From: a virus
Lineage: Duplodnaviria; Caudoviricetes
Virus record (IMG/VR): IMGVR_UViG_3300047545_000306
Span: 1 to 64,000 of that record
Reading direction: 5' to 3' (one strand)
DNA length: 64,000 bases
In this document: in pieces, positions 11,651-31,636 of the stretch
How positions within the stretch are numbered: the first letter of the stretch is position 1
Layout: every line of letters starts with the position of its first letter
Notes under the pieces: generated by a model
Told to the model about the DNA's origin: nothing
Database searches by the model: none
Seen by the model: only the letters and a program-made list of their open reading frames with translations
Made by a program: the position numbers and the translations under genes

Positions 11651-11680
11651 ATATGTTTATTAAATTATAGATTGTTTGAT

Positions 11681-11770
11681 TTATAGTGAGCGAATGCTCT
11701 GGAGGCTGGCTTGATGTTGCCACGAGTGTGCCAAGCTATATCGCTGTCGCAATTGCTGGTTTGACTTCAT
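11681..11770 (-). CDS. 29-aa peptide leading the tRNA array
   Basis: MKSNQQLRQRYSLAHSWQHQASLQSIRSL with GGAGA RBS and TTGCAA-17-TACAAT promoter. Confidence 0.55.
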   Translation of the reverse strand: MKSNQQLRQRYSLAHSWQHQASLQSIRSL

Positions 11771-11818
11771 AGTTATCTCCATGTATTTATTGTAGCATAT
11801 GTTTTGTTTTATTGCAAG

Positions 11819-30148: not shown

Positions 30149-30218
30149 AATGTCCCTTGCGATAGCGACGAAACACTATCCGTAGTTACCAGAGTGACGA
30201 GGGACCAATCACTCACAG

Positions 30219-30292
30219 CGATCCTGACCAGACTTGAACTGGCGACCCCTACCGTGACAGGGTAGTGCTCTAACCAACTGAGCTACAGGACC
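30219..30292 (-). tRNA. tRNA-Asp(GTC)
   Basis: CTACC-CTGTCAC-GGTAG. Confidence 0.93.
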
Positions 30293-30297
30293 AAAAT

Positions 30298-30609
30298 AGC
30301 TATGATGATCGGTCATAGCCCAGAATCCTAATAGTCTATAGTGCGGACCATAGACGAAGTAATTCTGTTTGTAGACTTGTCGGATTTGCACCGTTTGACA
30401 TGGCTTCACCTGGAGTGCTTCCAGTTACCATACAAGTCCTAGTGGGATATCAGACTAATCAGATCCACATCCCTGAGTCGTTTCCTAAGACGAGTGACCA
30501 GCTCCGAACCTATGTCGTGAGGTGCTTACACGCCAGATTAACTACTGCCTGGACAGCAACAAGTGTTGACAATTTTACGTGCACTTGTACACGTACAGGT
30601 GATTAGCCT
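30298..30609 (-). ncRNA. run of putative structured ncRNAs between tRNA-Gly and tRNA-Asp
   Basis: Multiple long complementary segments, pseudoknots and a T-loop-like element; no credible ORF. Confidence 0.6.
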
Positions 30610-30613
30610 ATAG

Positions 30614-30684
30614 AGCAGACGACCAGAATCGAACTGGCACCTTCAACTTGGAAGGATGAGGCACTACCATTATGCAACGTCTGC
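30614..30684 (-). tRNA. tRNA-Gly(TCC)
   Basis: Loop CTTCCAA, U73. Confidence 0.9.
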
Positions 30685-30841: not shown

Positions 30842-31636
30842 CTAGTTTAACACATTGACAAGCTTGTTGTCCAGAGATCCAGACAAATATTTTGCAGCTA
30901 CTGCGACATTGCCAGCAGAAGTTGTATTTGCGATTAGACCCAAGACTGATGACTTGTATGAATAGACAGCCGAGTTAGCGTAATAGTCAGTCGTTGCGTT
31001 TGCAGCGAACGCACTTACAAACAATCCAGACTTGTTTACTGACCCAACAGATACAGACTCAGTGTCTTCGATACAAGCTGGATAGCTAATATTTGTCCCA
31101 CGAGTATTTCCTGTGGCAACGAAGACCTTGATTCCAGACTGCTTTAGTGATGTGATCAGTGTTCGGATAGTTGCATCTGCCTTAGACACTCCACCGTATG
31201 AAGCAGTATTTACGCTAGATGGAGTGCACCCAGCTGAACCATTAAAATACCTAGACATTGCTACAGCACCGACGCTAGATGAGTTGTTGACCACCCAGTT
31301 AAGTGCGTCGATAAAGTTGCCTGCGTTAACATCTGAAACCGATGACTTACTTGGTGAACCTGCTCTCAATGCAATGATAGGCAATGATGGGTTTTGCCTT
31401 TTAGCAACCTCTACCATAGCGTTTCCGTGATTAGCGTTATCAGAAAGGCTCTTTGACTTCTTAGTCACTACATCGGTACATGGTTGGCTTTGCAAGGTGA
31501 TGCAAGACACATTTCCACCAACCACTTGTGAATCAAAGTATGAGTCAATAATGACTAGTGACTTTGTTTCTGCGTGGGCTGGGATAGTTGTTGCTGAAAG
31601 TGCTAGGACTGATAGTGCAATAATTAGTTTTTTCAT
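30842..31636 (-). CDS. secreted subtilisin-like (S8) protein
   Basis: Signal peptide (AHA); IIDS, NHGNAM, ATGN, YPAC..SVG, TTSA. Confidence 0.75.
   Translation of the reverse strand: MKKLIIALSVLALSATTIPAHAETKSLVIIDSYFDSQVVGGNVSCITLQSQPCTDVVTKKSKSLSDNANHGNAMVEVAKRQNPSLPIIALRAGSPSKSSVSDVNAGNFIDALNWVVNNSSSVGAVAMSRYFNGSAGCTPSSVNTASYGGVSKADATIRTLITSLKQSGIKVFVATGNTRGTNISYPACIEDTESVSVGSVNKSGLFVSAFAANATTDYYANSAVYSYKSSVLGLIANTTSAGNVAVAAKYLSGSLDNKLVNVLN

Follow-up and report, generated by a model that had tools for sequence, protein, structure and literature searches.

Module A, a 173-nt RNA encoded between two tRNA genes of a phage, belongs to a conserved, covarying and uncatalogued family of structured ncRNAs; its 31 distinct homologues fall into at least six subtypes and occur in uncultured phage contigs. 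Module A would most likely be released from a tRNA precursor as a free RNA particle, and the reading favored here, with a probability of roughly 0.55, is that it acts in trans as a stand-alone structured RNA which the phage tRNA operon carries as cargo. Four alternatives, each discussed beside the evidence that bears on it, fit the data less well.

The tRNA Array and Its Three-Module Gap

The window, i.e., the whole 64,000-nt stretch of DNA analyzed here, is part of a 103-kb IMG/VR virus record that codes for a terminase, a ribonucleotide reductase, a DnaB-like helicase and a DnaE-type polymerase. Since the nearest cultured relatives of the polymerase are Streptomyces phages (~127 kb, 55% identity), we infer an actinobacterial host for this phage. 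A four-tRNA array on the minus strand, Asn-Gly-Asp-Thr, carries a 320-nt gap between tRNA-Gly and tRNA-Asp. An nhmmer comparison of 80 related loci, which were collected via a conserved 264-aa protein encoded upstream of the array, resolves this gap into three separable modules:

30613-30684, minus strand: tRNA-Gly(UCC), the upstream neighbor of module A (ARAGORN, Rfam), with no encoded CCA
30440-30612, minus strand: module A, whole RNA, 173 nt (nhmmer and covariance-model matches)
30370-30439, minus strand: module B, a tRNA-like element, the 3' neighbor of module A
30293-30369, minus strand: module C, two hairpins
30218-30292, minus strand: tRNA-Asp(GUC)

Module A extends from the base after tRNA-Gly to the base preceding module B. 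The latter, which would set the 3' end of module A, combines a long arm with an acceptor-like stem of 8 bp and a hairpin, CGG-UGCAAAU-CCG, that resembles a T arm; it has neither a D arm nor a normal anticodon loop, and neither ARAGORN nor Rfam calls it as a tRNA. Its acceptor-like stem changes compensatorily, from GGACUUGU/ACAAGUCU to GGGGUUGU/ACAACCCC, and module B is present alone in other contigs (L054, L202, L204, L117 and L196). Module C has no homologues in the fetched loci; its second hairpin (30298-30320), followed by AUUUU, lies directly before tRNA-Asp and looks like a weak intrinsic terminator.

The 264-aa protein (30842-31636, minus strand) is conserved at 36-72% identity in ~100 viral contigs and matches no Pfam or PHROG family; in most of the 80 retained loci, its gene immediately precedes the tRNA array. 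A weak σ70-like promoter match (TGGACA-18-TAAACT with TG; 30844-30873, minus strand), which scores no better than chance, overlaps the 3' end of this gene, 35 nt upstream of tRNA-Asn. A 221-aa downstream protein, tried as another route to relatives, yielded none. Elsewhere in the window, the 167-nt gap between tRNA-Trp and tRNA-Glu (11651-11817, minus strand) holds no structured-RNA module: it resembles a short ORF with a ribosome-binding site (GGAGAUAACUAUG...) and is 75% identical to part of L078:4507-4720.

A Fold With Two Supported Pseudoknots

Covariation supports a 5' hairpin, two H-type pseudoknots, a 3-bp core hairpin and an 11-bp 3' hairpin; the elements of the model, in 5' to 3' order and with the contact between the terminal loops given last, are as follows:

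30594-30612, minus strand: P1, 5' hairpin UAUAGG/CCUGUA with the 7-nt loop CUAAUCA (30600-30606)
30559-30593, minus strand: PK1, an H-type pseudoknot
30590-30593 with 30578-30581, minus strand: PK1 S1, CGUG with CACG, 92% paired
30582-30588 with 30559-30565, minus strand: PK1 S2, ACAAGUG with CACUUGU, 99% paired
30566-30577, minus strand: the third, A-rich loop of PK1
30533-30558, minus strand: PK2, an H-type pseudoknot
30554-30558 with 30543-30547, minus strand: PK2 S1, UGCUG with CAGUA, both-sided changes in 5/5 pairs
30548-30552 with 30533-30537, minus strand: PK2 S2, CCAGG with UCUGG, 90% paired
30474-30532, minus strand: near-invariant core, mostly too conserved for covariation testing
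30529-30532 with 30516-30519 and 30520-30523 with 30508-30511, minus strand: PK3 (tentative), CGUG with CACG and ACCU with AGGU
30502-30504 with 30492-30494, minus strand: H4, core hairpin, GAG with CUC
30496-30499 with 30476-30479, minus strand: PK4 (tentative), H4 loop GGUC with GACU
30444-30473, minus strand: P5, 11-bp 3' hairpin with the 7-nt loop CUGAUUA (30456-30462)
30440-30443, minus strand: unpaired 3' tail ACUA, followed by the first G of the tRNA-like element
30600-30605 with 30456-30461, minus strand: kissing contact, UAAUCA (P1 loop) with UGAUUA (P5 loop)

The model was derived by subtype inspection and pair counting after RNAalifold, which, on a plain MAFFT alignment of 26 sequences, recovers a covarying 5' hairpin and a long 3' hairpin. 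In a 29-sequence alignment fitted to P1, PK1-S2, PK2-S1, PK3-S1, H4 and P5, so that the counts for these helices lean towards the model, 97.0% of cells pair and both-sided changes are seen in 33 of 59 pairs vs. 17.1 in shuffles; the observed values were reached by 0/500 shuffles, and slid controls pair at 32-40%. PK1-S1, PK2-S2, PK3-S2, PK4 and the loop contact lie outside the covariance model. When the 18 closest sequences are aligned by plain MAFFT, 99.2% of cells pair, with 10 both-sided pairs vs. 2.6 in shuffles. Frequent G-U pairs assign the RNA to the strand of the tRNAs.

Of the two terminal hairpins, P1 has both-sided changes in all six pairs (99.4% of cells paired) and is recovered independently on the MAFFT alignment; P5, in which GGGAUGU+GGAU pairs with GUCU+AUAUCCC around a single bulged G, has them in 9/11 pairs (99.1% paired), also in agreement with RNAalifold. 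A competing arrangement in which a core UAUAGG would pair with the 3' strand of P1 is lost in type III sequences. The tail that follows P5 is conserved across homologues as AC(Y)(N).

Between these hairpins, PK1 and PK2 share an H-type topology that is common to six subtypes which differ in sequence. All seven pairs of PK1 S2 show both-sided changes, and subtypes keep its topology with unrelated sequences (GAGGAA/UUUCUC, UUCAUUU/AAAUGAA, AAGGAC/GUUCUU, GAUAC/GUAUC); changes in PK1 S1 are mostly one-sided. Similarly, PK2 S2 is replaced by CUAAG/CUUAG and CUUAC/GUAAG in subtypes. Within the core, the middle pair of H4 alternates between A-U (n = 18) and G-C (n = 9). PK3 is 95% paired, with one both-sided pair and a U-U mismatch at one pair in 5 sequences, and PK4 is 100% paired with one-sided changes only (G-U, G-C, A-U; U-A, U-G). 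The core also includes a conserved loop, UUAGGAAAC, whose resemblance to a Shine-Dalgarno element was dropped because the GG is not conserved.

How does this fold compare with the one drawn from the window alone? All the sequence elements listed in the initial annotation are found where it placed them on the minus strand, and the compact multi-pseudoknot ncRNA that it proposed is upheld by the covariation of PK1 and PK2. Its extent of ~170 nt after tRNA-Gly was right in position and slightly short. In the 29 homologues, the pairing of ACAAGUG with CACUUGU holds over its full length; the UACGUG/CACGUA hairpin is supported as CGUG/CACG, and the UUGCUGU/GCAGUAG hairpin as UGCUG/CAGUA, with its loop CCAG(G) pairing with (U)CUGG. 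GGGAUGU does pair with AUAUCCC (5/7 pairs with both-sided changes, 99.5% paired), but as part of an ordinary hairpin at the 3' terminus, the loop of which touches that of the 5' hairpin, not as a pseudoknot across a closing helix. The 10-bp closing helix itself shrinks: its outer four pairs are unpaired in 7, 6, 0 and 19 of 29 sequences, the bases in question being taken up by P1 and the inner stem of P5, and what remains is UAAUCA/UGAUUA, a 6-bp contact between two hairpin loops. The UCGU/ACGA hairpin is rejected, with its outer pair unpaired in 11/29 sequences; the outer U/C covaries perfectly with an upstream A/G (A-U 17, G-C 9), with which it pairs in H4.

A Putative Loop-Loop Contact and the Near-Invariant Core

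The probability of finding six Watson-Crick pairs by chance between loops of 7 nt each is ~0.001, and this contact between P1 and P5 is kept in 27 of 29 sequences; L211 and L216 carry a C-A mismatch at its edge. In a divergent lineage (L054/L229, 28-29 bits), the loops pair as UUAC/GUAA in the same register, with two pairs changed on both sides; cognate loops are predicted at -2.9 and -1.5 kcal/mol, vs. +1.9 and +0.9 for swapped ones. Because the loops vary in one lineage only, this covariation represents one evolutionary event, and the support for the contact is moderate. The contact may be intramolecular, closing the molecule into a compact particle, or intermolecular, joining copies head to tail; sequence alone fits both, and the odds of head-to-tail oligomerization are put at about one in three.

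If the contact is intramolecular, module A could be a monomeric specific binder or a ribozyme, acting, for example, on tRNAs or tRNA precursors, with the core as its catalytic center or its pocket for a small molecule or protein. The ~60-nt core is almost invariant while the neighboring protein is only 40-70% identical between phages, which points to a specific partner; the multi-pseudoknot compactness recalls small ribozymes and aptamers, and a P1-kiss-P5 rod bridged by the 120-nt middle should be sterically feasible. However, the ribozyme and riboswitch families of Rfam 15 give no match, there is no ORF downstream to regulate, and tRNA enzymes can make the ends without self-cleavage; a binder or ribozyme of this kind is thus considered unlikely.

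Another conceivable role starts from the loops. Both are 7 nt long and follow the pattern C-U-N-N-N-N-A, and a link has been drawn between the tRNA arrays of phages and their escape from tRNA-targeting defenses; module A, fused to a tRNA-like module in the window, could be a decoy whose anticodon-loop-like loops soak up anticodon nucleases or tRNA-sensing systems. Their mutual complementarity would, however, occlude both loops; the main type has a U, not a purine, at position 37, and the paired bases of the L054 lineage do not coincide with the anticodon triplet, all of which makes a decoy distinctly improbable.

In the favored reading, the invariant core would engage some component of the translation and tRNA machinery, of either host or phage.

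A Non-coding RNA Family of Uncultured Phages

Homologues of module A were gathered through pattern scans of viral and metagenome contigs, profile searches and the covariance model R1. The first loose pattern scan gave mostly chance matches; the final viral scans added only L231, L229 and L233, and no new loop variants. The genome from which the window comes has a single copy of module A, with no second copy and no manA RNA. A blastn search of 50,697 cultured-phage records found no module A, with only the flanking tRNAs matched, and two exact-pattern scans of 185,579 prokaryotic species, which exclude close copies only, found none.

Could the conserved sequence be a gene? Homologues are 162, 163, 164, 168, 169, 174, 175, 176 and 181 nt long; these lengths differ by non-multiples of 3, no reading frame is open in all of them, and the two ORFs that overlap module A (68 aa on the plus strand and 66 aa on the minus strand) match neither Pfam nor PHROG families, so a coding region is rejected. 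Two familiar RNAs are rejected as well: a tRNA, since ARAGORN finds no cloverleaf and Rfam no RF00005 match; and a tmRNA, since ARAGORN and Rfam are negative and there is neither pairing between the two ends nor a conserved frame. Searched alone, as 189 nt, module A has no match in Rfam 15 at E ≤ 10; the same database at gathering thresholds reports only tRNAs in the entire window, and likewise in 1.1 kb searched at E ≤ 10. The initial annotation had recognized no known class, as these searches bear out, and neither of the findings that it named as counting against a new ncRNA, a coding region or a known family, was made. Conserved and covarying within a tRNA cluster, module A can be placed among phage tRNA-island-associated structured RNAs in the loose sense.

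Ends Made by tRNA Enzymes?

In 28/28 loci with upstream context, module A starts 0-2 nt after a tRNA (Gly, Asn or Asp), and in most loci it ends exactly at the start of the next tRNA, a degenerate tRNA-like element or module B; its junctions with flanking tRNAs measure 0-2 nt at the 5' side and -1/0 nt at the 3' side. Degenerate tRNA-like elements lie directly 3' of module A at L051:4207-4275 and L054:4173-4240, with similar ones in L207, L218 and L229; they score 44-46 bits with the Rfam tRNA model and are reported by ARAGORN only at a relaxed threshold, with no anticodon determined.

This flush anatomy suggests that module A is processed by tRNA enzymes. Transcribed inside a polycistronic tRNA precursor, it would acquire (i) its 3' end when RNase P cleaves at the 5' end of the tRNA or tRNA-like element that comes next; and (ii) its 5' end when the preceding tRNA, for which no CCA is encoded, undergoes 3' processing of the RNase Z type. 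Both ends would then be shielded by the terminal hairpins. There are precedents for such an arrangement: in MALAT1/mascRNA-type transcripts, the end of a non-tRNA transcript is set by RNase P at an adjacent tRNA or tRNA-like structure, and the tRNA operon of phage T4 carries two small stable RNAs, C and D, of unknown function. The likeness of module A to both systems is one of anatomy.

Embedding flush between tRNAs could also mean that module A is a cis-acting spacer of the tRNA precursor, which orders processing, blocks exonucleases or insulates neighboring tRNAs, and has no role after release; the terminator-like hairpin that follows modules B and C in the window would suit such a function. 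But if most relatives pack their tRNAs 0-4 nt apart, why would this array need a spacer? Furthermore, 173 nt with an invariant core and at least four tertiary contacts exceed what a spacer needs, and the position of module A varies, after Gly, Asn or Asp. A role confined to the precursor is therefore rather improbable.

manA and Other RNAs in the Same Arrays

Some relatives carry other spacers of 165-190 nt in their arrays, and one of these is a catalogued RNA. manA was known from cyanophages and marine bacteria, in which it was considered a probable 5'-UTR element (Weinberg et al., 2010, PMC2864571); in related phages, manA (RF01745, 61-75 bits) lies flush between tRNAs, in the slot used by module A. 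The placement of manA between tRNAs rather than in a 5' UTR suggests a processed free-standing RNA, not a cis-regulator. manA-like modules are present in 9/30 module-A loci and family Y, a further conserved spacer, in at least six; the array of L235, a complete 110.9-kb genome, reads Asn-manA-Gly-moduleA-Asp-familyY-Thr. The initial annotation had seen a kinship in setting with unexplained RNAs among phage tRNAs, and the co-residence of manA lends this view support. The copies are:

L002:4115-4299, manA
L005:4073-4257, manA
L067:4002-4182, manA
L078:3923-4109, manA
L235:1501-1682, manA

Like module A, manA is a structured RNA of 170-190 nt carried by phages, in which pseudoknots are combined with functional hairpin loops; it is found flush between tRNA genes in the same arrays, where the two are sometimes adjacent. 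manA is reported, in a 2026 preprint, to form RNA-only 8-, 10- and 60-mers through intermolecular kissing loops (cryo-EM, bioRxiv 10.64898/2026.07.01.735769); module A has a complementary loop pair that might serve similarly. The RNAs have no sequence or model similarity, and, unlike manA, module A lacks a long-range closing helix and has two serial H-type pseudoknots in place of a multi-stem junction. That module A is a highly diverged or rearranged manA member is very improbable: they share a niche and are similar in size, both open with a 6-bp 5' hairpin, and both close with a G-rich/C-rich helix and then an A-C-Y-U tail before the tRNA, but module A (189 nt searched) stays below the manA gathering threshold of 55.2 bits with no match to the Rfam model at E ≤ 10, the long-range GGGaG/CuCCC helix of manA encloses four stem sub-domains whereas GGGAU/AUCCC of module A encloses only a terminal hairpin loop, and the two RNAs occur side by side as distinct modules. 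Their co-residence shows that module A and manA are not interchangeable; beyond this, it offers only guilt by association.

ROOL and GOLLD are cage-forming phage RNAs located near tRNA islands (10.1101/2024.12.08.627333). They resemble module A in their phage or prophage origin, their frequent position beside tRNA islands and their ornate, pseudoknotted structures (PMC5737381). They are held together by kissing loops. They are much longer (500-800+ nt vs. 173 nt), and module A, shorter than the 500-nt minimum for this class, has no match to their Rfam models. For one kissing loop of ROOL, covariation had pointed to a tertiary contact, but the loop turned out to act between molecules (10.1101/2024.12.08.627333).

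By association, module A could belong with manA, ROOL and GOLLD to one functional guild of architectural particles that consist of RNA only and are produced in the course of infection. It is a tentative possibility, less probable than a trans-acting role as such, that module A is the second short (<200 nt) self-assembling phage RNA family beside manA, with terminal loops that join copies head to tail. If this is true, its copies would form closed rings, cages or filaments, and phages would deliver a set of RNA building blocks (manA, module A, family Y and others), hidden between tRNAs and released by host RNase P and RNase Z. A phage tRNA array is normally regarded as a codon supply; here, it would also be a delivery platform for unrelated structured RNAs, which host tRNA enzymes would excise for free. 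As an uncatalogued companion of manA with two complementary loops as a candidate interaction surface, and at 173 nt small enough for synthesis, mutational analysis and cryo-EM, module A offers a handle on the role of such RNAs in infection and on whether RNA-only assemblies are common among phages.

Two more families resemble module A in slot type, size range, tRNA-flush position and their failure to match any Rfam model (at E ≤ 0.1 for family Y); their sequences are unrelated to that of module A. Family Y (169-170 nt) is a conserved spacer between tRNA-Asp and tRNA-Thr or tRNA-Leu, often in arrays with module A and manA. Family Z (174-177 nt) is conserved, folds well and lies between tRNA-Leu and tRNA-Ser or tRNA-Val. 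Their copies are:

L002:4376-4544, family Y
L005:4334-4503, family Y
L067:4259-4428, family Y
L078:4186-4355, family Y
L235:2003-2171, family Y
L007:4117-4290, family Z
L065:4117-4293, family Z

Additional unexplained spacers lie at L012:4242-4412, L054:4733-4888 and L065:4367-4502.
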